This document shows positions 1 to 32,060 of a stretch of DNA of 64,000 bases, one piece after another. The stretch covers positions 1,351-65,350 of the forward strand of contig CAYZCS010000001.1 in the NCBI GenBank assembly GCA_964476895.1, written 5' to 3'. Each line of letters opens with the position of its first letter. Position 1 is the first letter of the stretch. The translations under genes and the position numbers were made by a program. This DNA is from an uncultured Candidatus Saccharibacteria bacterium (GTDB lineage: Bacteria; Patescibacteriota; SICC01). Under the pieces are notes generated by a model. It was given only the letters and a program-made list of their open reading frames with translations. It searched no databases and was not told where the DNA came from.

Positions 1-29
1 CACTGCGCGGCCGGAAATTGCTCAACCTT

Positions 30-917
30 TCAGAAAAGCTGATCATCGGCAGTACTGAAGCGCGCCTTTTCCATAAAGTCCGCGTTTTCATGAAACTGCC
101 CCTCGTTATCAATAAAACCAGCACAGTATCTCGGGTTAATGAGATCGTCGACACGGCTTCCATCGGCATCAACCTTCGGAAGATAAAAGTCAGCTGGAAG
201 TGTATCCTCGTTCTGAGAAATCACCTCCCGAGCCGGCGACAACTCACTTTCCTGCGTCGGAAAAGCAAAGACAAATCTCCCGATCTTGGACGTGCCGTAG
301 TACCCACTCACTAAAGCCCGCCCCGTATAATCTGGGTCGGTATCAGCAATCGACTCGTCAATAAAGAGCAGGCGTTGTTCGGGATTATAATTCCCCATGG
401 GCAGCCCGCCTTCGCCCGCCAAAAGTGTTTCAGCCTCTTCGAGAGAGCTGGCAAGCAACTGATTCAGTCCGAGTGCATACCGCCCATCCACTTTACGATC
501 GAGCCTATCTGGCAGCTTTCCGCCGAAGAGCTCTCCGGCCGAAGCCTCAAGGTTTTCTCTTATCCGTGAATTATCTACGACCTCCCTACTCTCCGCGATG
601 AAGGAACGATCCTGGTCCAGTTCTTTCCGGCGTTGTTCGGATAATCCACCCCACCACTCACTGAATGACTCGAAACCAGGATCTCCGGGCTTGGGTTCTC
701 CGGAATAAATGTAGAGATCTGCATTCTCCAGGTCGCGCTCCTCCTCTTCCGAGCGTTCGGGCTCACCCAACAGATCCTCCATCCCTGCATCTAGATCAAA
801 ACCCTGACCTGTTTCGGCCGTAACCTCAGGAGGTACGCCTCTTTCATTTTCATTCCCGTCCGGTAATCTGCGCATGTTTGTATTCAGTAAATTGATTAAA
901 TTTACCACAATTATCAC
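30..917 (-). CDS. hypothetical acidic protein (stop is near the left window edge; lies in a lower-GC, ~48%, segment)
   Basis: 295-aa ORF from the track; Asp/Glu-rich; no recognisable motif; composition differs from the core genome. Confidence 0.45.
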   Translation of the reverse strand: MIIVVNLINLLNTNMRRLPDGNENERGVPPEVTAETGQGFDLDAGMEDLLGEPERSEEEERDLENADLYIYSGEPKPGDPGFESFSEWWGGLSEQRRKELDQDRSFIAESREVVDNSRIRENLEASAGELFGGKLPDRLDRKVDGRYALGLNQLLASSLEEAETLLAGEGGLPMGNYNPEQRLLFIDESIADTDPDYTGRALVSGYYGTSKIGRFVFAFPTQESELSPAREVISQNEDTLPADFYLPKVDADGSRVDDLINPRYCAGFIDNEGQFHENADFMEKARFSTADDQLF

Positions 918-978
918 GCTTTTTCAAGGTTTCATGAAAGCTGGGCGACTTATGCCTGTGCAACACCCATAGAGCAAC

Positions 979-1341
979 CTAGGTTCCCATTGATGAGTAA
1001 TATCTGTCGGCCTCTGCGACCACTTTGTCACCATGTCCGGCCCTGAAATGATCAAGCCGGGGCTTAAGGTGGGCAGTGCTGTGTTCGAGCCAGAGACGCA
1101 CACCCTCTGATCCCAGACCTCCATACAAAGCCATGCCTATGCGATATAACTTTTCCGGTGCACCAGGATCTATGCTCCTGAGTTCTTCGATCTCTGCCTG
1201 ATCCAGGCCGGTCAGGGTAACACTGTCAGCTAAGATGTCGCCGGTCAGGTCTGGCTTGGGAGGAGGCTCGATCTCTACATACGCCGGAGCACCCTGCTCA
1301 AGGAGCTCAAACGCCGCCTGCCTTAGATCCTCTCTAGCCAT
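979..1341 (-). CDS. hypothetical protein
   Basis: 120-aa ORF, no recognisable motif; sits between the left low-GC gene and the tRNA-Trp repeat. Confidence 0.4.
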   Translation of the reverse strand: MAREDLRQAAFELLEQGAPAYVEIEPPPKPDLTGDILADSVTLTGLDQAEIEELRSIDPGAPEKLYRIGMALYGGLGSEGVRLWLEHSTAHLKPRLDHFRAGHGDKVVAEADRYYSSMGT

Positions 1342-1363
1342 GGTCCCAGCATTATACCTCTTC

Positions 1364-1404
1364 TGCAGAGCGGAGGGATTCGTACCCCCGACACCGGGCT
1401 TTGA
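1364..1404 (-). repeat. imperfect direct repeat of the 3' half of tRNA-Trp (T-arm plus part of the anticodon stem); att-like scar or pseudo-tRNA fragment
   Basis: tgcagagcggagggattcgtacccccgacaccgggctttg versus tgcaggggtggagggattcgaacccccgacaccgggttttg at 1963-2003 (about 35/41 identical, same orientation); it does not fold into a complete cloverleaf, and the T-loop is TACGAAT rather than TTCGAAT. Confidence 0.6.
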
Positions 1405-1424
1405 AGCCTCTGGTTGTTAAGCCG

Positions 1425-1943
1425 CTATCTGACTACGGCGAATGCCCTGACCGGACTACCGTCACCATCAGTGATTTTCAGAGGCATGCCGAAGAACTCG
1501 AACCTTTCTGGAAGCTCCTCGGTGTTAGAGAGCCTCTCAAAGAGTAAAACGTCGTGCTCAAGAAGGAACTTCTCGACCGATTCATCCGCCTCTTTGCTCA
1601 ATCCAATAAACTTAGGGCGCGAGGGTAAGATTTGCTTTGCGATTTCCATGGTTAATGCTTCTCGAAATACTACGCCGGTTTCAGGACCAACGTCGACACC
1701 TGGCTTGTAGATTACGGCGTTCCCGCAAAATTCGGCGAGATCGTAATCATCGAGCAATCTCCCGTTTTCCACGCAGTGGACTTGGGCATTCACGTGCGTC
1801 CCATCATGAGCATTGAGGTGAAGCCGCTTCATGTTCCATTCATCCTTAGCAATCGTATGGAGTTGTTCGATGTCTACCTCTGGGTCTCCGGGGTACACGA
1901 ACATCCCCTGCTGAATCGGGACTGATAGGTCGATGATCTTCAT
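1425..1943 (-). CDS. cyclase-family protein (kynurenine formamidase-like)
   Basis: HDGTHVNAQVH resembles the cyclase-family HxGTHxDxPxH motif; start taken at the internal ATG (MKIIDLS) because the longer GTG-start ORF would overlap the tRNA. Confidence 0.55.
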   Translation of the reverse strand: MKIIDLSVPIQQGMFVYPGDPEVDIEQLHTIAKDEWNMKRLHLNAHDGTHVNAQVHCVENGRLLDDYDLAEFCGNAVIYKPGVDVGPETGVVFREALTMEIAKQILPSRPKFIGLSKEADESVEKFLLEHDVLLFERLSNTEELPERFEFFGMPLKITDGDGSPVRAFAVVR

Positions 1944-1964
1944 GGTTTGAGCATTGAGATACTG

Positions 1965-2038
1965 CAGGGGTGGAGGGATTCGAACCCCCGACACCGGGTT
2001 TTGGAGACCCGTGCTCTGCCAGACTGAGCTACACCCCT
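1965..2038 (-). tRNA. tRNA-Trp (anticodon CCA)
   Basis: reverse complement folds as a cloverleaf: acceptor AGGGGTG/CACCCCT, anticodon loop CTCCAAA, T-loop GGTTCGAATCC, discriminator G. Confidence 0.85.
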
Positions 2039-2111
2039 AAATCGCGTAGCGCTCCCCCATTATGGCACTACGAGCGCACCGCGTGCACTCGCCCCACCCA
2101 CTCCGCGTGAG

Positions 2112-2273
2112 CTACTTCGTCTCTTTGTGCAGCGTGTGCTTGCCGCAGCGCGAGCAATGCTTCTTCAGCTCCAAGCGGTCTTGCGTAGTCCGCCGGTTCT
2201 TGGTCGTGTGGTAGTTGTGCTCCTTGCACGCCGTGCATTCGAGCGTGATCACTGGTCGGATGTCCTTAGCCAT
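2112..2273 (-). CDS. rpmG: 50S ribosomal protein L33
   Basis: 53-aa ORF below the track cutoff: [53 protein letters not shown], the classical L33 zinc-ribbon sequence. Confidence 0.85.
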
Positions 2274-2299
2274 ACCAGGTTACGATACCATGGAATCGC

Positions 2300-2373
2300 G
2301 CCGCCTTAGCTCAGTTGGCCAGAGCAACTGTTTTGTAAACAGTAGGTCCTCGGTTCGAATCCGAGAGGCGGCT
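2300..2373 (+). tRNA. tRNA-Thr (anticodon TGT)
   Basis: GCCGCCT acceptor, anticodon stem ACTGT/ACAGT with loop TTTGTAA, T-loop GGTTCGAATCC, short variable loop. Confidence 0.85.
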
Positions 2374-3128
2374 CAGCGCCGGTCGGAATCCATGGTGACA
2401 CCCTCACCATCGGGAAGCTGCATCAACCTATCGAGCATGGACTGGTAGCTCTTGTTGTCAAAGAAAAGCTGTTCCCGTACTTTCGCCTCGACCTCTTCCG
2501 TGCCGATCGCGATCTCCAGTTGAGGAGGACTATCGCCACCACCCGGCGTCCTGAGGATATCGCCCCTATTGACCCGAACCGGTACATCCAAGGCGCCTTC
2601 CAGCGGACAATCTTTTGGCCATGCGAACTTGCCCGGTCTCTTCGTCGTCAATGAACCTGCGCGAACACCATGGTCACTCCCTGCACGGATATAACCGGCA
2701 CTCCCTGCACAGACATAAGAATCGGTAGGGAATCCCCACTGACCCTGTTCGCCAATGACCAGTTCCGGTCTTGCCAGGATGCCCAGGCCCATGCGCTCCA
2801 CAACGTATGGGTCTTGCCACCCCTTACCGAATACGTGTGTCTGATATTCAACTCCGCGCGAGATCACCAGTACCGGTTCATTGACGTGCGCCGCCACGCG
2901 CTCTTCGAGTGAACGGAACAAGTCTACTGCCTCTTGGTCGAGTCCATGGTTCCGGTGGATCACGTGATCAACCAGCCGGTCGCCGGTGGTTTCGCCGGCA
3001 TGTATCCGGTCATATAATTCCCGATTCTTTCCGTCGTATATCGCAAACTGGGCTTCGCGGTTCGCCTCCGCAGCTACGGCTTCGGCCCGCGCTGCTTCGA
3101 TTTCACCTAGATCGATCGGACGACTCAT
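2373..3128 (-). CDS. hypothetical protein
   Basis: 251-aa ORF with ATG start; no motif recognised; its stop abuts the tRNA-Thr 3' end. Confidence 0.5.
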   Translation of the reverse strand: MSRPIDLGEIEAARAEAVAAEANREAQFAIYDGKNRELYDRIHAGETTGDRLVDHVIHRNHGLDQEAVDLFRSLEERVAAHVNEPVLVISRGVEYQTHVFGKGWQDPYVVERMGLGILARPELVIGEQGQWGFPTDSYVCAGSAGYIRAGSDHGVRAGSLTTKRPGKFAWPKDCPLEGALDVPVRVNRGDILRTPGGGDSPPQLEIAIGTEEVEAKVREQLFFDNKSYQSMLDRLMQLPDGEGVTMDSDRR

Positions 3129-3191
3129 AAATGGTAACTCCCTGTTAGTAACCAGCCAGTGTAGCAGAAAAATATTCCTTTGCGGCTACTG

Positions 3192-3275
3192 TGCTGGGAG
3201 AGGGATTCGAACCCCCGAAGGCATAAAGCCAGCAGATTTACAGTCTGCCCCGTTTGGCCGCTTCGGTATCCCAGC
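3192..3275 (-). tRNA. tRNA-Tyr (anticodon GTA), class II with long variable arm
   Basis: reverse complement GCTGGGATACCGAAGCGGCCAAACGGGGCAGACTGTAAATCTGC...GGGGGTTCGAATCCCTCTCCCAGCA. Confidence 0.85.
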
Positions 3276-3298
3276 AAGTTGTTAATCGATCGCCCCTG

Positions 3299-3371
3299 AG
3301 CCGAGACCGGGATTCGAACCCGGGACCTCATCCTTACCATGGATGCGCTCTGCCAGCTGAGCTATCTCGGC
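3299..3371 (-). tRNA. tRNA-Thr (anticodon GGT)
   Basis: reverse complement GCCGAGATAGCTCAGCTGGCAGAGCGCATCCATGGTAAGGATGAGGTCCCGGGTTCGAATCCCGGTCTCGGCT. Confidence 0.85.
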
Positions 3372-3420
3372 GTACCATACCATTGTAAACAAACTCGTGC
3401 CCAACGCCTGCCGATTGAAC

Positions 3421-3723
3421 CTATTGTTCGGATCCGAGCTCTTCGCGTAACGTCCGTGCTTCTTCCGAATAGCCGCTGGCCAAAGCGTCACAGATATCAG
3501 CCTGGCGGCGCACGATCCTTTGCAAAGATTCATCTCGTGACAGGTGTGCCGCATCGGGCGCCATCGTTTCATGGGTAACGTGTCTTTCCAGGATCTGCCG
3601 CTGCATCTCGAGTTCTTCTCGAGATCTCGGAAGCCCGTCTTGTGCCATCACGAACTCGACCGTCTGCGCCAACTTCTCGGGCGTCAATTCCCCCAGAACG
3701 GTTTCGGAATTCCGTTCGGCCAT
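3421..3723 (-). CDS. hypothetical protein (about 100 aa)
   Basis: start taken at the ATG overlapping the upstream TAA (TAATG); the longer track ORF 3421..3948 would overlap the TPR gene. Confidence 0.4.
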   Translation of the reverse strand: MAERNSETVLGELTPEKLAQTVEFVMAQDGLPRSREELEMQRQILERHVTHETMAPDAAHLSRDESLQRIVRRQADICDALASGYSEEARTLREELGSEQ

Positions 3724-11859: not shown

Positions 11860-14760
11860 TCAGGACTCCGTGCGGTGTTTCGGCCGGTGGCCCGGACAGT
11901 CGGCGAACGGGCTGCACTCGTGCGCGGTCCGTGCCGGCAGGAACTCGCCTTTCCGGATCGCCGCGGCCGTCTCGATGATCTTCTCACGCATCGCGGAGAG
12001 CTGCCGGGCCGTGGGCGTGGCCACGGCCGACACGCCGGTCTCCACGAAGTTCAGGACGATCTGCTCCGGCGGCTCGCCGTGCTCCTCTTGGTACGCCAGC
12101 GCATAGATCTGGAGCTGCTTGGCCAACGCGCTCTGCTTGATCTTCCGTTCGGCTTCAGCGGCGGTGCGCACCGATTCGCTGGTCTTGTAGTCGACGATCG
12201 TCGGCCTGCCGTGGTGGATGTCGATCCGGTCGAGACGTCCGGTCACCACGCAGCCGGGCAATGCCATCTTGAACGGATACTCCACTTTCGTCGGCGCCTC
12301 GCGCTTCGCTTCCTCGGCGAAGAACCGCTTGATGGCATCCGTACCTTTGGCGAGCGCCCGCTCCCGCTGCCCCGGCCGTTCCTCGGGCAGCGTCCCGATG
12401 CCCCGGGTGAACCAGTCGAGGCTTTCCTTGAGGCTCGGCTTCCGCTCCTCCAGCTTGGCGCGGTTGATGCGCTCGATCACCCGGTGGACCAGGTTCCCGT
12501 ATTCCGGCGCGAACGCCCGTTCATCCGGAAACTTCGCCACATGCATCCAGTAATACTTGAGCGGACACTCCCAGTAGTCACGCAGTCGGGAATAGGACAG
12601 CCGGAGGACCTCATCGTTGGCGACGGGACTGCTGATCGCGGTCACGGGCGTGGACTGGGCCAACGCCCGCCAGGGATCCTTCGGCGCGTCCGGAAGCGTC
12701 GTCGCGATGTCGTCCCCAAGCGCCTCGGTGACGAACGGGCTGGTCCGCCAGGCCCGCGCGGACTGGTAATCGCTGGATGCGGTCAGGTAGCAGAACCGCT
12801 TCGCCCGGGTGATCGCCACGTAGCAGAGCCGGCGCTCCTCACGCTCGTGGGACGCGCTGTCCGCTTCCCGCCCGATCACCGGATCGATCGCGAGCTGGTC
12901 GCTCCGCCGGTTCTGCGGGAACTTCCCTTTCACCATCCCGGCGACCGCCACGACTTCGAACTCCAGCCCCTTGGCGCCGTGCGCGGTAAGGATCCGGACG
13001 GCGTCGTATTCGCCGTCGAACTCGGCGGCGACCGATTCGTCGGACAGCGCGGCGATGTCGGCGTAGTGCCGGGCCCAGCCGGTGACGCTCGGGTCTTCGG
13101 CCGTCGCCGCGTACTGCCGGAGCCGCGCGAAGAGCTTGCCGATGTTCTCGACCGGCTGCTCGTCGCCGCCGGCGCGGAGCCGCTCGGCGTATCCTGCTTC
13201 CGCCAGCCAGTCATAGAGCAACTCGTCCACCGGCCGTTCGCGGGCCCGGCGCGCGTACGTCCGGATGTCGTCCAGGAGCTTCCTGACCTGCGGAACGTCC
13301 TTCGCCTGACGGTCCAGCAGTTCCCAGAGCGGCTTATGGAACCGCTTCATCTGTGCCGCGGCGGCGAACAACGTATCCAGCGGCACGTCGTAGATCGGGC
13401 TGGCCGCCAGGTGCTTGAGCGCCGGCGAGTCGTGGGGGTCGGCGACTGCCAGCAGGAAGTTCACGCAGAGCTTCACCTCCGGTTGCCCGTAGAGCCGACC
13501 GCTCCCTTCCGCGCGGTACGGAACTCCGGCGGATGCCAGCGCCCGGGCGAAGTACGGCCCGAGCTTCTTCTGCCGGACCAGCACCGCCATCTCCTGCCAC
13601 GGGACGCCCTGCTCATGGTGTTTCCGGAACCGCGCCGCCACGGCTTCCGCTTCGTCGGTGACGGTCGCGAACCGCAGGAACTGCGGCTCGGCGGCCTCCT
13701 GCACCGCCGCGGCGGTCAGGCGCTTGTCGAACCCGTCCTGCGTCTCCAGCCGGTCGGGATTGTGCCGAACCAACCGGTAGGCGGCATCGAGGATCGGTTG
13801 GGAACTCCGGTAGTTCTCGGTCAGCACGATCCGTGCCGGCCGCTCATGCGCCTGCTCGAACCGCTGGATGTTCCCGATGTCGGCGCCCTGGAAGCCGTAG
13901 ATGCTCTGGTCGTCGTCGCCGACCACGGTAAGGTTGCCGTCCGGGCCCGCGATCTCGTCCACCAGCGCCGCCTGGGCCGGATTGGTGTCCTGGTATTCGT
14001 CGACGAGGATCCAGCGGAAGACCTTCCGGAGCCGTGCCCGGATCTCCGGCTTGTCCCGGAGCAGCCGGAGCGGCATCTGGACCTGGTCGCCGTAATCGAT
14101 CAGGTAGTGTTCCCGCTTGAGCCGTTCGTACGCCGCGAACGCTCCCGCCACCTCCCGATGGCGCGCGAGCTTCCGTTCCGCATCGGAGCGCTCATCGGGA
14201 TCGGCGAGCTTCTTCACCCGGGCCGTCTCCCGCTTCGTCCACTTCGCGTAATCTTCCGGGGTCAGGTCCTCCGCCTTGGCGCGGTTAATCGCTCCGGCGA
14301 TCTCCTTCAGGTACGCCGCCGGACGCCCGCGCGGAGAAAGGACTTCCAGGCCGAGCTCCTCGAGATGGTCTTCCAGGAAGATCACCTGCTCCGCCTCGCC
14401 GAGCAGCTGGTAGGTCGGCGGGAGCCCCAGTTCGAAGGAGTATTCACGGAGCAGCGCGTCGCCGAAGGCGTGGAACGTCTGGATGTGCTCCGGCAATGCC
14501 GACAGCCCGAGTCCGATCAGACGGTCGAGCATCTCGCCGGCCGCCTTTTCCGTGAACGTGATCGCGAGGATCTCGTTCGCCGGCACGCCGCGCTCCTCGA
14601 CCAGGTGCGCGATCCGCCTGGTGATCACGTTGGTCTTGCCGGTCCCCGCCCCGGCCACGATCAGGAGCGGCCCCTCGCCGTGGGTGACGGCCCGGGCCTG
14701 GGCCTCGTTCAGGCCGGTGCGCGGCTTCGGCTGCTTCGGTTCGGTGGAGGCAGGGTTCAC
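11860..14760 (-). CDS. UvrD/PcrA-family helicase fused to a C-terminal PD-(D/E)xK (RecB/Cas4-like) nuclease with a Cys cluster
   Basis: Walker A AGAGTGKTN, helicase motifs (VDEYQDTNPAQ, TAHGAKGLEF), C-terminal YSRLRDYWECPLKYYW...YGNLVHRVIE and CSPFADCPG. Confidence 0.8.
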   Translation of the reverse strand: MNPASTEPKQPKPRTGLNEAQARAVTHGEGPLLIVAGAGTGKTNVITRRIAHLVEERGVPANEILAITFTEKAAGEMLDRLIGLGLSALPEHIQTFHAFGDALLREYSFELGLPPTYQLLGEAEQVIFLEDHLEELGLEVLSPRGRPAAYLKEIAGAINRAKAEDLTPEDYAKWTKRETARVKKLADPDERSDAERKLARHREVAGAFAAYERLKREHYLIDYGDQVQMPLRLLRDKPEIRARLRKVFRWILVDEYQDTNPAQAALVDEIAGPDGNLTVVGDDDQSIYGFQGADIGNIQRFEQAHERPARIVLTENYRSSQPILDAAYRLVRHNPDRLETQDGFDKRLTAAAVQEAAEPQFLRFATVTDEAEAVAARFRKHHEQGVPWQEMAVLVRQKKLGPYFARALASAGVPYRAEGSGRLYGQPEVKLCVNFLLAVADPHDSPALKHLAASPIYDVPLDTLFAAAAQMKRFHKPLWELLDRQAKDVPQVRKLLDDIRTYARRARERPVDELLYDWLAEAGYAERLRAGGDEQPVENIGKLFARLRQYAATAEDPSVTGWARHYADIAALSDESVAAEFDGEYDAVRILTAHGAKGLEFEVVAVAGMVKGKFPQNRRSDQLAIDPVIGREADSASHEREERRLCYVAITRAKRFCYLTASSDYQSARAWRTSPFVTEALGDDIATTLPDAPKDPWRALAQSTPVTAISSPVANDEVLRLSYSRLRDYWECPLKYYWMHVAKFPDERAFAPEYGNLVHRVIERINRAKLEERKPSLKESLDWFTRGIGTLPEERPGQRERALAKGTDAIKRFFAEEAKREAPTKVEYPFKMALPGCVVTGRLDRIDIHHGRPTIVDYKTSESVRTAAEAERKIKQSALAKQLQIYALAYQEEHGEPPEQIVLNFVETGVSAVATPTARQLSAMREKIIETAAAIRKGEFLPARTAHECSPFADCPGHRPKHRTES

Positions 14761-14814
14761 CTCACCATTGTACCGAAGTGCCCCTGCGGCGGTGGAACCG
14801 TGACAGCGGAATCG

Positions 14815-15474
14815 TTAGAGCGTCCGGAAGCTGTCCTTGAAGGACCGTTTGGCCGCCGCGGTCGCTTCGGCATACGTGAAGTCCTTGTAATCCCCGACCG
14901 TACCGTCCGCGAAGACGACGACGTACGCGAATCCGCCCGCTTCCTCAAGCAGGCTGTCCGGATTGCCGATCGCGTGGCCGGAAGCCCTGGCGTCGTCGTA
15001 CTTGTCGATCGGAATCTTGCCGATCGTCGCGACCTCGGCGTACTTGGTCTCCTTGTTGATCAGGAAGAACGTCACGGAATTGGTGCTGATGCCGACGTTG
15101 CTTGCCTCCCGGTACCGCCACTTGCCGACCCACTCCTCGGGCACGTCCACGGCGAACCCGAGGTTCGCGCTGGAGTACGTCGCCGTCTGGGCGGCCGGCG
15201 CGTCACCCTCCTGGGTCTGCGGCGCGGCACTGGCCAGCGGTTCGGGGCTCGGTTGCGCGCCGAGCCGTTTCTTGAGCCGCTTGATCTCATCCTCCTGCTC
15301 GGCCAGCTGCTCTGCCGCGGACTGGCTTGCCACGATCCAGCCGCCGAAGCCGGCGCCGGCCGTCAGGAACAGGCCGATCAGGACGGTCAACAGGAGGGGT
15401 GATGCACCGCGCTGGCCGGAGACCGTCCCGCGGAAGCGGGAACGGCGGATTCGTTGGGAACGTCTAAGGCTCAT
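14815..15474 (-). CDS. membrane-anchored hypothetical protein
   Basis: N-terminal TM helix, then a Gln/Ala-rich linker and a globular C-terminus. Confidence 0.5.
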   Translation of the reverse strand: MSLRRSQRIRRSRFRGTVSGQRGASPLLLTVLIGLFLTAGAGFGGWIVASQSAAEQLAEQEDEIKRLKKRLGAQPSPEPLASAAPQTQEGDAPAAQTATYSSANLGFAVDVPEEWVGKWRYREASNVGISTNSVTFFLINKETKYAEVATIGKIPIDKYDDARASGHAIGNPDSLLEEAGGFAYVVVFADGTVGDYKDFTYAEATAAAKRSFKDSFRTL

Positions 15475-15540
15475 ATGTCTATCGGTGTTCGATGCGAATG
15501 CTACCCCGGCCGACGGCCGGCTGCAATCGGCCGGCCGTGG

Positions 15541-16296
15541 TCACTCGAACAATCCGCCGCCGCGGTCGCCGGAGGCACGACGGCCCTTCCCGCCACCCGG
15601 GCCGCGGGCCGACCGTTCCGGATCGCGGACGTACCGCACCCCTTGCCGGGTCGTGCGATGGAGCACCGCGTACGCGGCGCCCGCCGCCGCGGCCAGCGTG
15701 GCCAGGACGATCAGGCTGAAGAGGACGATGCCCCGCACCCGCTCGAACTCGGTTCCGAGGACGGCGCCTACGTACTCGGATAGCCCCGGGCTGAGCGCAC
15801 CGAGCCCGATGATCGCACAGATCGCGACGAACGCGGCGAGCCCGGCCCGAAGGTCCTGGAGGCTCGGCGCCATCGCCGCGGTGATCGCCGAGGCCAGGTA
15901 CGCGAAGACGAAGAACTGCCAGGAAGAGATGGAAAGCTCGCCGAAGCCGACGAAGCCCGGCACCAGCGCCAGGGCCAGGAGGTACACCGCGATCGCCGCG
16001 CCGAGGATCGGTGCCACGCTGATGATCCCGTCGCCGAGCGGTGCCCGCGGTTCCTCATGCACCACCGCCCCGCCCCGCGCGTCGAACACCCGGACTTGCC
16101 GGATCCGCGCGCCGGTCAGGATGCAGGCCAGCGCGTGCGAATACTCGTGGATGATCACGCCCGGCGCGATCAGGAACCGGTACGTCCGCCCGACGAACAC
16201 CCGCGCCAGGAACCAGTTCGCGGCATACGACAAGACCAGCACGGCCACCAGCAGGCCGAGCAGCTGGACCCCTGGATTGGTTGTGAGTGCTTCCAT
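15541..16296 (-). CDS. polytopic membrane protein with HExxH motif (putative zinc metalloprotease)
   Basis: HEYSHALACILTG sits within a hydrophobic segment. Confidence 0.5.
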   Translation of the reverse strand: MEALTTNPGVQLLGLLVAVLVLSYAANWFLARVFVGRTYRFLIAPGVIIHEYSHALACILTGARIRQVRVFDARGGAVVHEEPRAPLGDGIISVAPILGAAIAVYLLALALVPGFVGFGELSISSWQFFVFAYLASAITAAMAPSLQDLRAGLAAFVAICAIIGLGALSPGLSEYVGAVLGTEFERVRGIVLFSLIVLATLAAAAGAAYAVLHRTTRQGVRYVRDPERSARGPGGGKGRRASGDRGGGLFE

Positions 16297-16323
16297 TGTG
16301 TCTAGTGGTCTGACCGGACGCGG

Positions 16324-17796
16324 TCAGATCCAGCTCTTGAGCCACATCCGCCGGCCGTAGTCCGTAGCGTCGAGCCCGACTCCGGTCCAGACCGGATAGA
16401 AGTAGACGAACGCCAGCAGCGCCAGAGCCAGGAACGCCACGCTCTGTTTCTTTCCCCACCGCCAGCGGGGCACGTTCGTCCCCGCCCACGCCAGTGTCGC
16501 GCCGCCAGCCAGGAGCGTCCCGACCGTGAACCAGGTGACGTCCCCGCCGAACGCCGAGCGGAGGAACAATCCACCGAGCACGCCGTTCGCCGCGATCAGC
16601 CCGAGCCAGACCAGCGACTGCGGCCACGGGTCCTTCGGCCGCCACTGCCAGCTCTGGCCGAGCGCGTATGCCAGCGCCAGGATCACGAACGGCAGCGCCC
16701 CCGCGTAGTGGTAGATGAAGAGTACCCGATCGATCAGCGCCCACGGCGCGTAGTGCGCCAGGATCGCGAAGAGAATGAAGGCCAGGACCAGGCTCCGCCG
16801 CCGGACCAGCTGCACGGCCGCGAAGATCGCGGCCAGCAGCCCGCCCCACCAGACGACAGGGTTCCCCATCGCGATGATGCCCTGCCACTGCCCCTCGACG
16901 ACCTTGAAGTAGTACGCCACCGGACGGATCATCGCCGGCCAGGTGAACCAGTCCGAACCGTACGGATGCGTGGCGTCCAGGTTGTGGTGGTAGTTCCAGA
17001 TCTGCTTGTGGATGCCGGCGGCGTTCTCGCCGGTCGAATCGAACGGCACGTGGATCGCGAAGATCGCCGTGTAGATGATCACCGGCGCGACCACCAGCCA
17101 CGCGACGTAGTGCTCCGCCCGGAAGAGGTTTTCCTTCCGGACACCGAGCGCGGCCAGGAGCCGGTCGCCGGAGCGGACCTTGAAGATCCTCCGAAGTCGA
17201 CGGCGGTCGCGGAACGCGTACACCAGGAGCAAGCCGAACGCCGGCGCGATGAACGCCAACGTGATCCACTTGAGCGAGAGCCCGAGCCCGAACGCCACGC
17301 CCGTCGCGACCAGCCAGCGGTACGCGGCCCGGCGGGTCTTCGCCTGGAGGCTCGCCAGGAACAGGAAGTAGGTCAGGACGTTGAAGAAGACGACGAAGCC
17401 GTCCAGCACGGCCGTCCGCGATTCTACGAGCAGGAAGCCGTCGAGCAGCGCGAGCACGCCGGCGAACGCCGGGACCAGCACGCCACCGAAGATCCGTTTG
17501 GCGAGCAGGTAGAGCAGCGGGACCACCGCCGCGCCGAACAGCGCCGGTGCGAACCGCCAGCCGAAGGAGTCGTTGCCGAAGAGCCACTGCCCGCCGGCGA
17601 TCAGGAACTTACCGAGCGGCGGCTCCGCGTCGAAGAACGGCGTCGCGGTCAGGTAGTTCTGCGCGAAGACCGCGAAGTACGTCTCGTCGAAGATGATCTC
17701 GCCGGGGTGGCCGAGGTTCACGAACCGGAGCAGCAACGCGGCGAGCGTCAGCCCGCCGAGGATCCACCAGTCACGGCGTGTCATGGTCCTCACCAC
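16324..17796 (-). CDS. GT39-family (protein O-mannosyltransferase-like) glycosyltransferase
   Basis: IIFDETYFA DE motif near the N-terminus, multiple TM helices. Confidence 0.7.
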   Translation of the reverse strand: MVRTMTRRDWWILGGLTLAALLLRFVNLGHPGEIIFDETYFAVFAQNYLTATPFFDAEPPLGKFLIAGGQWLFGNDSFGWRFAPALFGAAVVPLLYLLAKRIFGGVLVPAFAGVLALLDGFLLVESRTAVLDGFVVFFNVLTYFLFLASLQAKTRRAAYRWLVATGVAFGLGLSLKWITLAFIAPAFGLLLVYAFRDRRRLRRIFKVRSGDRLLAALGVRKENLFRAEHYVAWLVVAPVIIYTAIFAIHVPFDSTGENAAGIHKQIWNYHHNLDATHPYGSDWFTWPAMIRPVAYYFKVVEGQWQGIIAMGNPVVWWGGLLAAIFAAVQLVRRRSLVLAFILFAILAHYAPWALIDRVLFIYHYAGALPFVILALAYALGQSWQWRPKDPWPQSLVWLGLIAANGVLGGLFLRSAFGGDVTWFTVGTLLAGGATLAWAGTNVPRWRWGKKQSVAFLALALLAFVYFYPVWTGVGLDATDYGRRMWLKSWI

Positions 17797-17896
17797 TCCA
17801 GCGTAGCACTGTTATCTGCCGCGGCAGCGGCCCCGGGTCCGGCCTTCCCGTCCCCGTGTGTCCGTCGGAACGGAAATCGCTATACTGTAATCCGTT

Positions 17897-20245
17897 ATGC
17901 CTGAATCCGACGGATTGGAGTTCGGGGGCGAGCACCCCGAGAACCTCCAGTACACCACCAAGGACGCGCGGCTCCTCAACCAGACCGAAACCGGCATCGC
18001 CCGGGCGGTCGCCGAAGAGTCGGAAAACTTCCTCGAACGCCAGTACGGACGGGTCTATATCGTCACGGATATCCCCTTCACCAACGACGCCTACGACGTC
18101 GGCGAGATCATCACCGACACGTTCCAACGCGAGTTCTTCGGGGATCTCAACCGCTCCGTCGGCGATGCGTTCGAGCACGCCCTGACGGTCCTCAATCAGA
18201 CGCTGGCCGACCTGGCCGCCGAAGGACAGTCCGACTGGGTCGGCAGGCTGAATGCGGTCATTTCCGTGGTCCACGAGAACCACATCTTCGTGACGCAGGC
18301 CGGAAGCGCCAAGGCGTACCTCGTCCGGGGCCACTCCTCCACCGACATCACCGAAGGGCTTTCCGAGCCGCCGGCCGGCGGCCAGACCGCGAAGACGTTC
18401 CTGAACGTCGCGGAGGGCGCGCTCGAGGTCGGCGACAAACTGGTGCTGGCCACGCCGGAGCTGCTGGAGCGGATCCAGATCCGCGACCTCCGCCGCACCG
18501 TCTTCCTGCATCCGCCGATCCGCACGATCCAGAAGCTCGCCGAACAACTCACCGAGCAACGTCCGGAACGGTTCGCGTCGGTGTTCGTCGAACTCACTAC
18601 CGTGGACCTGATCTCGACGGAGACCCTTTCCGAGGAACCGAACGAGATCATCCTGTCCGCACCGCGCCGACACTTCGAATCGCTCCAGCGGTTCCGCCCG
18701 CTCCGCAAGGACACCCCAGCCGCCGAACTGGCCGACAAGGCCCGCAAGCGTTGGGAACGGGAACTCCGACCGCGGGTCCAGCGGGCCACGGCAGGACTGA
18801 CCCACCGGGTCCGTTCCTGGCAGGCTTCCCGAAAGGGCGAGACGCCCCCGCCTCCGCCGCCGCGGCACGCGGCCGGCACCCCCGAGACCGAGCACCCGAA
18901 ACCGCGGTCCGACCGGCCGGTGACCGGTGCCGGAAGCCCGAATGCCGCCCTGGAGACCGTCCGACGGTTCGGCCGGCAGGCGGCCGAGTCCGCCCGTCCC
19001 GTCACCAGCAAGCTCCGGGAGCTCTGGGAGAAGAGCGGTATTCCGCGTTCCGGTGCTTGGCAGCGCGTCTCCGGAGTCGTCCGAAAGATTACCGCCCCGG
19101 TCTACCAGCGGGTGGCCGCCCTTCCCTGGCGCGACCAGTTCGCCGGCGACAAGCGGACCCTCTACCGGAACCTGATCCTTGCCGGCGCGCTGGTCCTGCT
19201 GATCAGCATCGCGCTCTCCGTGAATGCCGCCCAGAACCGCAAGGCCGAAGCCGACGTCCGCGAACGGATCGAGCAGGTCGAGGAGCTCCAGGCCAAGGCG
19301 GAAGCCAGCTTCATCTTCAAGGACGTGGCCGGCGCGCGGAAGCAACTCGCCGAGGCCCGGACACAGGCGAACGAACTCGAGCGGGAGGGCATCCTCGAGG
19401 ACGAGGTGTCCACGCTCCAGAAGAGCCTGACCGTCTCGGCGGACCGGATCAACGTGGTGGTCCGGGTGCAGGAGCCGATCGCCGACTTCCGGGAGCAGGC
19501 GGACGGCCCGCTGATCTCGATGGCCCAGTCCGGCACCAGCCTCTACGCGTTCGGCAAGCAATCGCCGGTCGTCACCTTCAACCTGAACGGCAGCGAGACC
19601 ACCGTCGGTGAGGAGCCGCCGGCGCAAAGCGCGGTCACCGGCACCGCGACGACCTCGAACGGCGACGTCCTCCTGCTGACCGACAAGCCGGCCCTGGTCC
19701 AGCTCGACACCGCTTCCGGCGCGGCCGCGGAAATCGAGATCGGGACCGGCGGCAGCTGGGAGCGCGGCTCGGCGGTCGACACCGTCCAGCAGAACGCGTA
19801 CATCCTTTCACCCGACGACGACCAGGTCTGGCGCCACACCCGGACGCTCTCCGCGTTCAACCGGGGCGAACCGTACTTCGACGGCGAAGTCGACCTGGAA
19901 GGCGCGGTCGATCTCGTGACCGGCGCGGCGGTGCACATCCTGAAGTCCGACGGCACGGTGATCCGGGCCAGCGGTGGCCAACCGGCGGACCTGCCGCTCG
20001 CGAAGCCACCCGCTCCGGACAGCTCGCTCGACGGCGCGACCGCGCTGGCGATCAACTTCGCGAACGACCACCTCTTCGTGGCCGATCCGGAGCGGAAGCG
20101 CGTGGTCGAGTTCAACGCCGACGGCGCCTACGTCCGCCAGTTCCGCAGCGATGACTTCGGCGACATCACCGACATCATCGTCGACGACAAGACGGAGCAG
20201 CTCTTCGTGCTCTCCGGCAACCGGCTTTGGCAAGTCGAGCTGTGA
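17897..20245 (+). CDS. large hypothetical protein with a central TM/coiled-coil segment and a repeat-rich C-terminal domain
   Basis: 782-aa ORF; the N-terminal region faintly resembles a PP2C-like fold (VISVVHENHIFVTQAGSAKAYLVRG); central LILAGALVLLISIAL helix. Confidence 0.55.
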   Translation: MPESDGLEFGGEHPENLQYTTKDARLLNQTETGIARAVAEESENFLERQYGRVYIVTDIPFTNDAYDVGEIITDTFQREFFGDLNRSVGDAFEHALTVLNQTLADLAAEGQSDWVGRLNAVISVVHENHIFVTQAGSAKAYLVRGHSSTDITEGLSEPPAGGQTAKTFLNVAEGALEVGDKLVLATPELLERIQIRDLRRTVFLHPPIRTIQKLAEQLTEQRPERFASVFVELTTVDLISTETLSEEPNEIILSAPRRHFESLQRFRPLRKDTPAAELADKARKRWERELRPRVQRATAGLTHRVRSWQASRKGETPPPPPPRHAAGTPETEHPKPRSDRPVTGAGSPNAALETVRRFGRQAAESARPVTSKLRELWEKSGIPRSGAWQRVSGVVRKITAPVYQRVAALPWRDQFAGDKRTLYRNLILAGALVLLISIALSVNAAQNRKAEADVRERIEQVEELQAKAEASFIFKDVAGARKQLAEARTQANELEREGILEDEVSTLQKSLTVSADRINVVVRVQEPIADFREQADGPLISMAQSGTSLYAFGKQSPVVTFNLNGSETTVGEEPPAQSAVTGTATTSNGDVLLLTDKPALVQLDTASGAAAEIEIGTGGSWERGSAVDTVQQNAYILSPDDDQVWRHTRTLSAFNRGEPYFDGEVDLEGAVDLVTGAAVHILKSDGTVIRASGGQPADLPLAKPPAPDSSLDGATALAINFANDHLFVADPERKRVVEFNADGAYVRQFRSDDFGDITDIIVDDKTEQLFVLSGNRLWQVEL

Positions 20246-21069
20246 TGCCAGACGCGGAACATCCTTCCTGGTCCGAACTGGCGAAGCGTCCCTACCCGGA
20301 ACACATCTACGATTCCGTCAGAACCGGAATTGCCAAGGGGCTGATCGAGAAGGAACTACGGAAGCAGCTTCCTGAACTGGGAACGGATGCCCAGGAGGCA
20401 CTCCGGTGTGGCATTGACCACTGGACGGATGGCAGCAGGGTCGGCTTGGCGGGTATCCATGATTTCTGGAACGGGTTCGACGGCATTACCCGGGGCTTCA
20501 AGCTCAAGCAATTCCTACCGGTACTGACCGGCAGGAACGTTTCCTGGGAGCGCACCGAGGTGGCGATCGCATCGGTCACGACGACCGCGGACCTGCCCGT
20601 GATGGAATCGCTCGAAGGACCTCCTTATCCGATACCGGACCTGCTGAAGGCGCTCGAGGATCCGAAGGTGCGGGCAGCATTCAAAAAGGACTCCGACCAC
20701 CATGCAGAGCATCCTGTCCGTCGTGACCACTATCCCGTGATCCTGATGAACGACGGTACGACAAAGAACACCATGGATGGCAATCGGCGGATCATCCGGG
20801 CGGCTGTCTACGACCGCCCCACGATCGACGCTTGGGTCGGCACGATCACTGACGGAAACCGCCCCTGCGACTATTGGGTCACCACCGGCTACCTACGGAA
20901 CCTGGTCCGGTTCGCCGAAGAACAAGGAAACGATGCCGTCACCGAAGCGACGTTCACTATCCTTAGGACCTTGATGAGCGAGACTGAAATCGCCAAGACA
21001 AACTACCGCTTGCGAATCATGAAGCCGGGATCATTCGGGGAAGCGCTCGGCAAACGCCTTGGGCTTTAG
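20245..21069 (+). CDS. hypothetical protein
   Basis: ATG overlaps the upstream TGA (TGATG); local GC is lower than the neighbours. Confidence 0.5.
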   Translation: MPDAEHPSWSELAKRPYPEHIYDSVRTGIAKGLIEKELRKQLPELGTDAQEALRCGIDHWTDGSRVGLAGIHDFWNGFDGITRGFKLKQFLPVLTGRNVSWERTEVAIASVTTTADLPVMESLEGPPYPIPDLLKALEDPKVRAAFKKDSDHHAEHPVRRDHYPVILMNDGTTKNTMDGNRRIIRAAVYDRPTIDAWVGTITDGNRPCDYWVTTGYLRNLVRFAEEQGNDAVTEATFTILRTLMSETEIAKTNYRLRIMKPGSFGEALGKRLGL

Positions 21070-21154
21070 GCTCAGGCCTTTCCGCGGACCAGCAGCAGGC
21101 CCCGTTCTCCAGGTTCCGGCTGACTGACCAGCGAGACCTTAAGGACTTTCTGCT

Positions 21155-22720
21155 TCACAGCTTCTCCGGCAGCTCGATCCCGACGGTCTCGCCGACCTGT
21201 TCCAGCACCAGCTTGGTAGCCTCGACGAGCCGGAGCCGCGCCGCGGTGAGCTCCTTGTCGTCCGAAACCACGCGGCACTGCTCGTAGAACTTGTGGAACG
21301 CGTCGGCCACGCCGAGCGCGTAGTGCGGCACCCGTTGGATCTGGTAGTCCTCCGCCGTCTGCCGGATGACCTCGGGAAACGCCGAGAGCTCCTGGACCAG
21401 CGCGAACTCCGCGGGCTCGACGAGCTTGCCGAGGTCGGCGTCCTTCTTCTTCGCGCCGCGGCCGGCCTGCCGAAGGATTCCCGCCACCCGCGCGTACGCG
21501 TACTTCAGGTAGTAGACGGGATTCTTCTGGCTCTGCTCCTTCGCCAGGTCGAGGTCGAAGTCCATGTGGGTGTCCCAGCCGCGCATCACGAAGAAAAAGC
21601 GCGCCACGTCGGACGGGATCTCGGCGAGCAGCTCGTCGAGCGCTACGTACGTGCCGGCCCGCTTGCTCATCTTCACTTCCTGGCCGCCGCGGGTCAGCCG
21701 GACGAGCTGCGTGACGAGGACCTGCAGCTTCCCGTCGAAGTGGTCCGCCTGACGGAGGAACTCGACGCCCGCCTCCATCCGCTTGATGTAGCCGTGATGG
21801 TCGGCGCCCCAGATGTCGATCGCCAGGTCGAGCTGCCGTTTCGCCAGTTTGTGGTAGTGGTAGGCGAGGTCGGCCGCGAAGTAGGTCAGCGCGCCATCAG
21901 ACTTCCGGAGCACGCGGTCCTTGTCGTCATCATGGTGAGTGGTCTTGAGCCAGAGCGCGCCGTCCTTCTCGTACGCCGCGTCGATCTTCTCGAAGCCGGC
22001 AAGTACGCGCTCGATCTCGCCGGTCTCGTGCAGCTCCTTCCGCTCCGAGAACCAATCGTCGAACCGGATCCCCATCCGCTCGATCGTCTTCCGGATCTCT
22101 TCCGTCATCAGCGCGGCAGCCTCCGCCCCGACTTCCGCCGCGGTCTTCGCGGTATCCACCTTGGTCTTCAGCTCCGCGACGTACTCGCCCTTGTAGGCGT
22201 CTTCCTCACCCCGGAGCGTGGCGCCGAGCTGTTCCACCTGGAAACCGGCGTCGTTCAGGTAGTACTCACGGCTGACCGTGTGCCCGGCCCGCGTCACCAC
22301 GTTCGCCAGGACATCACCGCCGTAACCGCCGCGGCCGTTACCGAGCGTAAGCGGACCGGTCGGATTCGCGGAGATGAACTCGACCTGGATCTTCCGGCCG
22401 GTCTCCGGGAGCCGCCCGAAGTCCTTGTCCGCTTCCAAGATCTCCGCGACCACGCCCTGCCACGCGGCCGGGCTCAACCGGAAGTTGAGGAACCCCGGAC
22501 CGGCGACCTCGACCGCGTTGAACATCTCCTCGGTCGAGAGCTTTTCCTGGAGCTGCTCGGCCAGGCTGCGCGGGTTCACGCCCCGCTTCTTGCCGAGCAC
22601 CATCGCCACGTTCGAGGCGTAGTCCCCATGCTCGGGCTGCTTCGGGCGCTCGACCGAGAAGTCGGCGTCTTCCGCCTCGGCGAGTTTCGTGAGCAGTGTA
22701 CGTATTTGTTGAGCAAGCAT
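21155..22720 (-). CDS. argS: arginine--tRNA ligase
   Basis: HIGH-region equivalent SANPTGPLTLGNGRGG and a class I ArgS C-terminal anticodon-binding region; start at the MLAQQIRTLL ATG, since the track ORF extends 206 codons upstream through non-coding sequence. Confidence 0.85.
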   Translation of the reverse strand: MLAQQIRTLLTKLAEAEDADFSVERPKQPEHGDYASNVAMVLGKKRGVNPRSLAEQLQEKLSTEEMFNAVEVAGPGFLNFRLSPAAWQGVVAEILEADKDFGRLPETGRKIQVEFISANPTGPLTLGNGRGGYGGDVLANVVTRAGHTVSREYYLNDAGFQVEQLGATLRGEEDAYKGEYVAELKTKVDTAKTAAEVGAEAAALMTEEIRKTIERMGIRFDDWFSERKELHETGEIERVLAGFEKIDAAYEKDGALWLKTTHHDDDKDRVLRKSDGALTYFAADLAYHYHKLAKRQLDLAIDIWGADHHGYIKRMEAGVEFLRQADHFDGKLQVLVTQLVRLTRGGQEVKMSKRAGTYVALDELLAEIPSDVARFFFVMRGWDTHMDFDLDLAKEQSQKNPVYYLKYAYARVAGILRQAGRGAKKKDADLGKLVEPAEFALVQELSAFPEVIRQTAEDYQIQRVPHYALGVADAFHKFYEQCRVVSDDKELTAARLRLVEATKLVLEQVGETVGIELPEKL

Positions 22721-28421: not shown

Positions 28422-28645
28422 GCGTCCATTCTGGCATATTATTAAGCGTCGCCCGCTGTTTACCTTCAAAACAAGAGAAAGGATCCGCATGGAGACGGAG
28501 ATACTAGGTATCGTCACGATGGACGAGCAAGGAAGAGTCACCCTCGACGGCAGGCAGCTGCCGCTTGGCGCCGGCGATGCTTTCACGGCCACTGGAGCAC
28601 CCCGCTTGGTTTACTTTTTGCCTTTATTAAGTAATATATCTAGCT

Positions 28646-29353: not shown

Positions 29354-29386
29354 CTTTCCCGCCTAACAATCGTACAATCCGCGCAC

Positions 29387-32023: not shown

Positions 32024-32060
32024 ACGAGTATCTTACCAGTCAGACTTTTGCGATTTTCTT

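Follow-up and report, generated by a model that had tools for sequence, protein, structure and literature searches.

What placed a second copy of the tail of tRNA-Trp 600 nt away from the gene itself, and what is the DNA that lies between and beyond the two copies? The question arises in a window of 64,000 nt (the whole stretch of DNA that was analysed) from an uncultured Candidatus Saccharibacteria bacterium. Patescibacteria have very small genomes, and how they gain genes is little understood. The reading preferred here, to which a probability of roughly three in four is given, is that a high-GC Patescibacteria clade has a hot spot of site-specific integration at the 3' end of tRNA-Trp and that the window holds a tandem array there. 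The locus was compared with that of the nearest relative, the Patescibacteria MAG L003 (contig JBBDXB010000006.1; 92% nucleotide identity in core genes), and with those of two more distant relatives, L011 and L013, which are near-identical to each other.

The duplicated tRNA-Trp tail

The features of the locus are collected in Table 1. When the full block is aligned on the minus strand (2006→1962 against 1406→1363), 39 of 44 positions are identical and one nucleotide is deleted, in good agreement with the earlier note, which had described a repeat of the 3' part of tRNA-Trp in the same orientation at about 85% identity; none is expected by chance. The att core sequence contains CTCCAAAACCCGGTGTCGGGGGTTCGAATCCCTCCACCCCTG. 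Its 35-nt core at 1972-2006 is repeated at 1372-1406 with three mismatches, giving two matches in all of the 64 kb, and 100 dinucleotide shuffles gave no chance match. That the copy is no functional tRNA, as the same note had held, is borne out by its changed T-loop, which reads TACGAAT where tRNA-Trp has TTCGAAT, and by the silence of both ARAGORN and Rfam, the latter returning no tRNA match up to E=10.

Table 1. Features at the tRNA-Trp locus, numbered by position in the window.
Feature	Position	Strand	Remarks
rpmG, ribosomal protein L33	2112..2273	-	PF00471, E=1.3e-22; syntenic in L003, L011 and L013
Intact tRNA-Trp(CCA), proposed integration target (attB/attL)	1965-2038	-	ARAGORN (1964-2038) and Rfam tRNA model, 66.4 bits
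attL core, 45-nt block from anticodon-loop C32 to discriminator G73, with trailing CAG	1962..2006	-	Duplicated part of the tRNA
Cassette leader, 18 nt, TATCTCAATGCTCAAACC	1944..1961	-	Between tRNA trailer and cyclase ATG; homologous in L011 and L013
Short cyclase-family cargo gene, 172 aa	1425..1943	-	PF04199, Pfam E=1.7e-10
Cassette spacer, 18 nt, CGGCTTAACAACCAGAGG	1407..1424	-	From cyclase stop codon to att copy; distal cassette end
att' (attR-type), decayed duplicate of the tRNA-Trp 3' block	1363..1406	-	39/44 identical, plus one indel
21-nt leader and 120-aa acidic orphan gene	979..1362	-	ORF call; first gene beyond att'
281-aa acidic protein, uncharacterised family	30..875	-	Same low-GC left flank

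The repeat also runs on beyond the end of the tRNA. Both copies are followed by a motif of the form CAG…TAT…AATGCT-N3-ACC-ATG, which reaches the ATG of the cyclase gene in one case and that of the 120-aa gene in the other, and which none of 5000 shuffles equalled in score; the cyclase leader, which begins CAGTATCTC…, and that of the 120-aa gene resemble each other. A search for further att copies in 1-1360 of the window gave a best local match at 776-789 on the plus strand (13/14) that falls within the shuffle range. One of the two short Logan contigs that matched (L001, SRR12687281) corresponds to 771-2331 of the window with a single mismatch.

Two copies lying in the same orientation and a short distance apart might be thought to result from a local tandem duplication of tRNA-Trp in which one copy decayed and no mobile DNA took part, and a GTAG-TCAG stretch ahead of the copy, which faintly recalls the D-arm, could be read in the same way. 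However, the 32 nt upstream of the att' block match the tRNA 5' half no better than shuffled sequence does (p=0.22), and the duplication is thus limited to the 3' part, breaking off sharply at the anticodon loop (C32). A full-length duplication was rejected on these grounds: over the comparisons made the 5' part stays at shuffle level (p=0.22-0.39) while the 3' block is preserved at 39/44 to 44/45, so that decay is not uniform along the supposed pseudogene. The upper figure is that of the orthologous att copies in L011 and L013, which agree with the CAG form of the block at 44/45 positions. The DNA between the copies is, moreover, compositionally foreign and missing from the nearest relative, and in relatives this junction holds other elements, all of which makes a plain tRNA pseudogene extremely unlikely.

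The good conservation of the copy in L011 and L013, its position 18 nt past the cyclase stop codon and its retained T-arm hairpin suggest a further reading, in which the copy is kept as a tRNA-like RNA that serves as a 3' processing, stabilising or terminating signal of the cyclase transcript. This is very unlikely, since the folding energies equal those of shuffled sequences in three genomes (z = 0.09 in the window, and -0.37 and -0.61 in the others), no Rfam family is matched, and the T-loop and acceptor positions are mutated in the window although the cyclase gene there is still intact. Terminator-like matches, whose number lies within the shuffle range, are all on the plus strand, opposite to the cyclase transcript, and neither promoter nor terminator pattern scans rose above shuffle level.

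The copy is probably the displaced former 3' end of tRNA-Trp. Under the integration reading, incoming DNA would bring an attP that is a copy of the tRNA sequence between the anticodon loop and the 3' end. By recombination at the tRNA gene the element would be spliced in, the tRNA would be remade from the element's own copy, and the previous tRNA 3' end would be left as a direct repeat on the far side. The bases that trail the discriminator vary with the occupant, being CAG where the cyclase cassette abuts tRNA-Trp (the window and L011) and CCA where another element does (L003 and L013), as would be expected if incoming elements each supply the tRNA 3' end.

Different elements at the same tRNA-Trp site in relatives

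The tRNA gene itself is 97-99% identical in L003, L011 and L013, and rpmG, the upstream gene of the rpmG-tRNA-Trp unit, is the final conserved protein gene ahead of the insertion point. From position 9000 down to 1964 the window aligns with L003 at 80-92% identity, and synteny ends exactly at the tRNA 3' end; foreign DNA begins 3 nt past the tRNA-Trp discriminator. GC is also lowered on the other side of tRNA-Trp (56.7% over 2039-3700).

At this 3' end L003 and L022 carry a 550-aa protein with Resolvase, Recombinase and Zn_ribbon_recom domains, which is to say a large serine recombinase and not the tyrosine recombinase that had been assumed for the site. It is followed by genes for an AAA_25 protein, a primase zinc finger, an HTH protein, an HNH-RecQ-like helicase and a PLD-SNF2 protein, and further on by an MmeI-like methylase, a PD-(D/E)XK protein and GmrSD. 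This defence island, autonomous in appearance, has 42-52% GC, extends over at least 17 kb and, in L003, has no sequence in common with the cyclase cassette. No distal att copy of the L003 island was found within 17 kb, and use of the same core by its recombinase is putative; nor were att copies found beyond the tRNA in L022 and L023. A search of the L003 recombinase against a viral collection gave no result.

In L011 the order is tRNA-Trp, the cyclase unit, an att copy (44/45) at exactly 600-nt spacing and then a native flank of TauE-DnaA_C-…-MurB-SecE-NusG-L11-L1, which is also present in L013. There the series is longer, with tRNA-Trp followed by a VRR_NUC gene, a degenerate att remnant, the cyclase unit, an att copy and the native flank, so that VRR_NUC forms a second cassette in tandem with the cyclase unit. 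The internal remnant ends CCCTGCAG and is weak when taken alone (score z about 2.3), and the VRR_NUC cassette is without the shared leader motif.

Two further comparisons were set aside. The junction after att' shares an 8-mer, AAGAGGTA, with the L003 element at a 1-nt offset, but a global test for homology gave p=0.58 and the match is a hint at most. The genomic context of a helicase homologue (P0128) proved unrelated.

The integrative elements at tRNA-Trp that the earlier note had proposed are thus supported by the synteny break, by the L003 island and by the cyclase units bounded by the repeat in L011 and L013, and the comparison of the tRNA-Trp/rpmG neighbourhood that it had called for turned out in its favour. 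None of the native-flank genes conserved in the relatives is present in the window, and neither the 120-aa nor the 281-aa gene of the left flank, which the note would have expected beside tRNA-Trp in relatives had it been wrong, occurs in any relative compared. The cyclase gene does adjoin tRNA-Trp in two of them, yet there too it lies in a low-GC insert flanked by att repeats.

The two proteins encoded beyond att' are acidic, as had been observed (pI 4.2 and 4.8), and the GC content there was measured at 52% (1-1363), with 50% for the cassette, in place of the roughly 48% given before for the whole left side. Neither protein has a Pfam, PHROG, NCBIfam or PADLOC match, a PDB sequence search returned nothing for them, and neither gene bears a mobile-element hallmark. 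The family of the 281-aa protein comprises 99 representative clusters among 1.84 billion proteins, with fusions to SAM methyltransferase domains in some, and the confident AF2 model of this protein (pLDDT 88.8) matched no PDB fold significantly; an exact-protein look-up returned no record of it, and searches against metagenome and viral collections gave no result. Positions 1-1963 likewise gave no result against phage and plasmid collections. The two genes are probably part of a second inserted element: the segment 1-1362 would take the place of the relatives' native flank and belong to an element that was probably inserted earlier and continues past the window edge. This order of insertions in the array is the one that we infer.

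The cyclase cassette and its spread

The unit beside the tRNA would be a foreign, integrase-less cassette of 0.55 kb made up of a leader, a cyclase gene and a spacer that ends …CAACCAGAGG. The earlier note had seen only a cyclase-family gene between the repeats, and indeed the roughly 555 nt (1407-1961) that separate the copies contain one ORF, the PF04199 gene of 172 aa; as a description of what is there, however, a mere integration scar falls short, for this is an intact and conserved single-gene cassette. The protein is 92-93% identical in amino acids to those of L011 and L013 with a dN/dS of about 0.07, and every residue that is invariant in the family is kept, so that the gene is intact and under purifying selection. 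The spacer is identical to that of L011 (18/18) and nearly so to that of L013 (16/18).

The composition and the history of the unit set it apart from its surroundings. In the window the cassette has 50% GC against 65.6% in the core, and across all three genomes the contrast is 47-50% against 65%; the site is both GC-atypical (47-52% against 65%) and polymorphic, the cassette being absent in L003 and L022 and present in L011 and L013. Between the window and L011 or L013 the cassette is 90-91% identical in nucleotides (dS 0.42), whereas neighbouring genes are 69-84% identical (dS 0.63-0.97); between L011 and L013 core genes have a dS of 0.02-0.06 and the cyclase gene one of 0.20. The cassette genealogy therefore disagrees with that of the core genes in both directions, although the discordance is moderate (about 2-fold in dS) and comes from one gene of 172 codons. 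The next-best short cyclase homologues are 50-63% identical and are found away from tRNA genes, in ordinary surroundings, in genomes with 35-46% GC, and it is plausible that the cargo came from a pool of ordinary chromosomal short cyclase genes in low-GC Patescibacteria.

Domain searches found no recombinase, excisionase or other mobility gene in any ORF of 1-1963, and neither a circular junction nor an empty site was seen. The cassette stands alone between the tRNA end and att', having kept attL and attR without integration or transfer genes. Its junctions would have been made by a recombinase, for which a large serine recombinase like that of L003 is the best candidate type. The decay of att', with changes in T-loop and acceptor positions now that it is freed from tRNA selection, suggests that in the window the cassette is probably fixed. 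All cargo genes are co-oriented with rpmG and tRNA-Trp and the first starts 21 nt after the discriminator base, an arrangement from which read-through expression from the host transcription unit is likely.

How such a unit came to be shared is a separate matter from how it arose. It is possible, though well short of an even chance, that a single ancient integration was trimmed by deletion to the cyclase unit and then spread by homologous recombination, anchored by the identical tRNA/rpmG at one end and by the 45-nt att copy or the flank at the other, without any site-specific mobilisation of the cassette. Such a history would depart from the integration reading only in the manner of spread, the origin being the same. 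It would draw on tRNA genes that are 97-100% identical across genomes and could act as anchors, on the presence of the cassette without an integrase in three genomes, and on an allele replacement close by: a neighbouring gene of 251 aa, with a tRNA gene on either side, has 62% amino acid identity, against 99-100% in the core, between near-identical genomes, and recombinational exchange thus does occur around this tRNA cluster (a metagenome scan for which 251-aa proteins were aligned gave no result). However, an anchor of 45 nt is short for RecA-dependent exchange, the flanks are about 25% diverged, and the extra cassette of L013 and the island of L003 are independent integrations at tRNA-Trp. 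The DNA past the att copy is, in addition, unrelated between the window and L011, which puts any right-hand crossover inside the 45-nt block, as site-specific recombination predicts.

The opposite departure would be to regard the unit as still active, that is, as an integrase-less mini-cassette of about 600 bp moved by the recombinases of larger tRNA-Trp-specific islands, with the cargo read through from an array in the manner of an integron. Several observations are in keeping with this: the unit has the same boundaries in three genomes, with the spacer match to L011 and the att copies of L011 and L013 already described; its genealogy is independent of the core genes; L013 holds single-gene cassettes in tandem; the window's cyclase leader is related to that of the 120-aa gene; the cargo shares the orientation of rpmG and tRNA-Trp; and in L003 the site is taken by an element with a serine recombinase. 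The reading is nonetheless unlikely. There are only three known instances, two of them in near-identical genomes, too few to show selection on the att copy; the window's att copy is decayed; the VRR_NUC cassette does not carry the leader motif; the next-best cyclase homologues, at 63% identity or less, are not linked to tRNA genes; and among the genomes compared neither a circular form nor a recombinase alongside a cassette was seen. In its most specific form, a living 0.6-kb cassette moved in trans by large serine recombinases within an integron-like tRNA-Trp array of read-through cargo, it is more doubtful still.

Taken as an integration hot spot, the locus offers a concrete and well-delimited example of gene gain in Patescibacteria, in which one tRNA gene would be the landing site at which close lineages swap in and out a single metabolic-type gene, a nuclease gene or a 17-kb defence island. 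A large serine recombinase apparently targets a 45-nt sequence of tRNA-Trp, and this could be tested as a tool for site-specific integration.

Relation to known integrative elements

Elements that target tRNA genes have reportedly been divided into sublocation classes, among them one with crossover in the anticodon loop, by Williams in Nucleic Acids Res in 2002. The classical prophages and islands of the anticodon-loop class carry a tyrosine integrase beside the tRNA. They resemble the cassette in that the block of identity starts in the anticodon loop and extends to the tRNA 3' end and the element remakes the tRNA, and differ in that the window is without an integrase and the enzyme of the relative is a serine recombinase.

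An integron gene cassette in the strict sense was considered and rejected: the boundary is the 3' part of a tRNA and not an attC, it shows no unusual fold, and there is no integrase in the region.

Tandem islands parted by partial tRNA or tmRNA copies, some of them integrase-less, have been documented (PMC3146451; PMC5704250; bioRxiv 10.1101/2020.12.28.424599). In Dehalococcoides multiple low-GC islands lie in tandem downstream of the single-copy small RNA gene ssrA and are bounded by direct repeats of its 3' end, and about half of them, being without an integration module, were suggested to be CIMEs (PMC3146451). Their serine recombinase of about 540 aa lies on the reverse strand adjoining attL, and the 550-aa protein of L003 holds the same position. 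The target there is a tmRNA with a repeat of 20 nt in the T-loop, whereas here it is tRNA-Trp with 45 nt from the anticodon loop, and the cargo consists of reductive dehalogenases, in contrast to the cyclase-family gene and defence genes at tRNA-Trp.

The tycheposons of Prochlorococcus likewise integrate at tRNA genes, leave partial tRNA copies and push older elements outward, and their islands contain scattered degenerate remnants and extra partial tRNAs; their integrases are tyrosine recombinases, with a minority of large serine recombinases (bioRxiv 10.1101/2020.12.28.424599). Primase/helicase modules together with cargo or defence genes are common to tycheposons and the L003 island. Tycheposons belong to another phylum, however, and what the window contains is limited to cargo and a partial tRNA; none of the hallmark tycheposon genes is present.

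A close parallel is that of CIMEs and tandem accretion, which were defined for ICESt1/ICESt3-related islands in Streptococcus thermophilus (PMC5704250). [quoted passage not shown] The differences are that CIMEs target the fda gene and not the 3' end of a tRNA, and that they are larger, the cassette with its single 519-nt gene falling far below those described; the cassette hosts are, moreover, Patescibacteria with no conjugation module in view. That the cassette descends from an ICE or IME is putative, as is its mobilisation in cis together with an adjacent functional element, for which the genealogy at odds with the core genes gives indirect support only. With these differences the cassette is an integrase-less, CIME-like unit in a tandem array, a known type of footprint that calls for no new mechanism. 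Integration targeted to tRNA genes, tandem accretion and integrase-less remnants are all established, and the locus extends this known pattern to a new group while leaving the understanding of it unchanged.

The duplicated tail of tRNA-Trp

The 3' part of tRNA-Trp is duplicated in the window, as an earlier note had claimed from the sequence alone. A 35-nt core (1972–2006) recurs at 1372–1406 with three mismatches and a spacing of 600, and nowhere else in the 64-kb window does it match (0 in 100 shuffles). The full block, running from anticodon-loop C32 to discriminator G73 and the trailing CAG, is identical at 39 of 44 positions between 2006→1962 and 1406→1363, with one base deleted. This copy (att') received no tRNA call from ARAGORN and none from Rfam up to E≤10, and its T-loop reads TACGAAT, which bears out the claim that it is no functional tRNA; that it serves instead as a functional tRNA-like RNA element is a reading that was not supported and that we consider highly improbable. 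The 32 nt upstream of the att' block resemble the tRNA 5' half only at shuffle level (p=0.22) and the 3' block is repeated, so the left boundary of the duplication is sharp and lies in the anticodon loop. Att cores in tRNA genes share this kind of boundary. A duplicated tRNA pseudogene was rejected because the boundary at C32 is sharp.

Past the tRNA end, both copies continue CAG…TAT…AATGCT-N3-ACC-ATG into the start codons of the cyclase-family and 120-aa genes, and 0 of 5000 shuffles reach an equal score for this extended similarity. The order along transcription is rpmG, tRNA-Trp, cyclase, 120-aa and 281-aa genes, all on the minus strand. GC content is 52% at 1–1363 and 50% in the cyclase segment vs 65.6% at 4–28 kb; the low GC previously described left of the repeat therefore stands, but not the value of 48% attached to it.

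Features of the window and of the closest relative, L003
Feature	Position	Strand	Basis or context
rpmG	2273→2112	minus	PF00471
tRNA-Trp(CCA)	2038→1965	minus	ARAGORN, Rfam
172-aa cyclase-family gene	1943→1425	minus	PF04199
120-aa orphan gene	1341→979	minus	ORF
281-aa orphan gene	875→30	minus	ORF
tRNA-Thr(TGT)	2300–2374		
251-aa orphan gene	2373–3128	minus	between tRNA-Tyr and tRNA-Thr(TGT)
tRNA-Tyr	3191–3275		
652-aa HATPase_c_3 protein	30065–32023	minus	second low-GC stretch
Three orphan ORFs	32061–34198		second low-GC stretch
L003 tRNA-Trp	L003 13203–13279		
L003 large serine recombinase, 550 aa	L003 13214–14866	minus, opposite to tRNA-Trp	Resolvase + Recombinase + Zn_ribbon_recom

The same tRNA gene in relatives

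A genome scan with holB located L003, a 'Patescibacteria group bacterium' MAG (JBBDXB010000006.1) with 95% amino acid identity at holB and ~92% nucleotide identity over 5 kb. It is collinear with the window from 9000 down to 1964 and diverges exactly at the tRNA-Trp 3' end. Downstream lies an island of at least 17 kb at 42–52% GC, headed by the 550-aa large serine recombinase; the stretch contains no cyclase gene and also includes an AAA_25 protein, a CHC2 primase zinc finger, DUF5659, an HTH protein, an HNH-RecQ-like helicase, a PLD-SNF2 protein, an MmeI/Eco57I-like methylase (1186 aa), a PD-(D/E)XK protein and GmrSD. The last 21 codons of the serine recombinase ORF, which is absent from the NCBI record's gene list, are antisense to tRNA-Trp, and therefore its C-terminus would change on excision. 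Logan contig L023, from the same element, starts precisely with a 31-mer from the att core. In L022 (the relative's tRNA-Trp island), the PLD-SNF2 helicase, MmeI/Eco57I-type methylase, PD-(D/E)XK protein and GmrSD fall within 11879–21821, and the cargo appears to be defence genes stacked together.

Two more distant relatives, L011 (NCBI) and L013 (ENA), were reached from the lineage-specific 251-aa neighbour gene through its homologues and share the window's gene order upstream of tRNA-Trp. In L011 the tRNA is followed by CAG, leader, cyclase and spacer, then, with a spacing of exactly 600 nt, by a repeat of the tRNA 3' block (44/45), and beyond it by native genes (in order, TauE, a DnaA_C-domain protein, glyoxalase, MurB, SecE, NusG, L11, NUDIX and L1). 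In L013, tRNA-Trp (trailer CCA) precedes a VRR_NUC gene, a degenerate remnant reading …GGTTCTCAACCC…CCCTGCAG, the cyclase unit, an att copy and native genes of the L011 type. The distal att copy adjoins native DNA in both, and unrelated 52% GC DNA in the window. None of these native-flank genes was found in the window or L003, and the window's 120-aa and 281-aa genes occur in none of the relatives whose tRNA-Trp neighbourhood was compared. Immediately after the discriminator come the bases CAG if the neighbour of the tRNA is the cyclase unit (window, L011) and CCA if it is other DNA (L003, L013); L013 keeps the CAG version in front of its cyclase unit. The loss of window–L003 synteny and the cyclase unit with its att copy at tRNA-Trp in L011 and L013 support the integration scar that the note had read into the repeat.

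The 18-nt non-coding spacer CGGCTTAACAACCAGAGG from cyclase stop to att copy (window 1407–1424, L011 11707–11724) is identical at 18/18 positions, against a 32% difference at synonymous sites in the gene beside it; with so small a count, either a recombinase-binding arm of att or chance may explain the identity.

The cyclase cassette and its neighbours

The cyclase unit has 47–50% GC in the window, L011 and L013, and the cores 65%. Comparing the window with L011 and L013, the unit is 90–91% identical in nucleotides (dS 0.42) and neighbouring genes 69–84% (dS 0.63–0.97). For L011 vs L013, dS of core genes is 0.02–0.06, the two genomes therefore being nearly identical, and that of the cyclase gene is 0.20. 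Too alike between distant genomes, too unlike between close ones and missing from the nearest, L003, the unit requires horizontal movement or replacement: it is a foreign cassette with a history of its own.

An old remnant spread by homologous recombination, with tRNA genes as anchors, is a possible, if less likely, account of this pattern, and the 251-aa gene, with tRNA genes on both sides as putative anchors, looks like a case of such allele replacement. Its protein is hypervariable (L011 vs L013 62% identical, dS 2.1; neighbouring proteins 99–100%, dS 0.02–0.06; window vs L003 76%, holB 95%), with just 6 homologues among 5.8 billion proteins, a poor AF2 model (pLDDT 67.5) and ~57% GC around the gene (2039–3700). 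A second low-GC stretch at about 28000–38000, with its minimum near 30000–32000 (38.6% GC at 30–32 kb vs ~65% background), may be another acquired island; its orphan ORFs are followed by a HAD hydrolase, inositol monophosphatase, pentapeptide-repeat protein, GrpB and alpha/beta hydrolase.

The cyclase gene is intact (dN/dS ~0.07), and its protein has every family-invariant residue. Cyclase-like proteins of 172–176 aa are common in low-GC Patescibacteria, in ordinary non-tRNA contexts and with native composition, which suggests that the cargo came from there. All members of this short family have N replacing the D of HxGTHxDxPxH, which we take to be the motif of canonical cyclase-family enzymes. 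The nearest curated model of the cargo (1425–1943) is arylformamidase (kynurenine formamidase), at 51.6 bits vs a cut-off of 223; this is a tryptophan-catabolism enzyme, and its proximity to tRNA-Trp is probably a coincidence.

Probable integration and accretion, and known systems

The simplest account, to which we give a probability of roughly three in four, is that elements integrated site-specifically at the 3' end of tRNA-Trp and then accreted in tandem. Every newcomer would bring its own tRNA 3' end, so that the bases after the discriminator vary with the occupant, and the older end would be displaced outward and then decay. Since att' adjoins unrelated DNA in the window and its counterparts adjoin native DNA, the native flank is probably separated from att' by a second element, which would continue beyond the window edge. 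Descent of both units from related elements whose attP arms are alike would account for the shared CAG…ACC-ATG likeness. No recombinase other than that of L003 was seen at the site, making an L003-type large serine recombinase the candidate enzyme. The cyclase ATG stands 21 nt past the discriminator and every cargo gene is co-oriented with rpmG and tRNA-Trp, so read-through expression from rpmG-tRNA-Trp is plausible. That the unit is a mini-cassette actively mobilised in trans would fit its conserved boundaries and spacer, but with only three instances we think this unlikely.

Integration with accretion is itself an ordinary mechanism, here in an under-studied phylum. An autonomous integrative element encodes its own recombinase and the cyclase unit does not, so we class it as CIME-like and not as an independent island. 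The structure of the tRNA-Trp locus matches the documented parallel of CIMEs and accretion (PMC5704250), the tandem ssrA islands of Dehalococcoides, where attL has a ~540-aa serine recombinase beside it on the reverse strand and many units lack an integrase (PMC3146451), and the tRNA-anchored islands built by tycheposons in Prochlorococcus (bioRxiv 10.1101/2020.12.28.424599).
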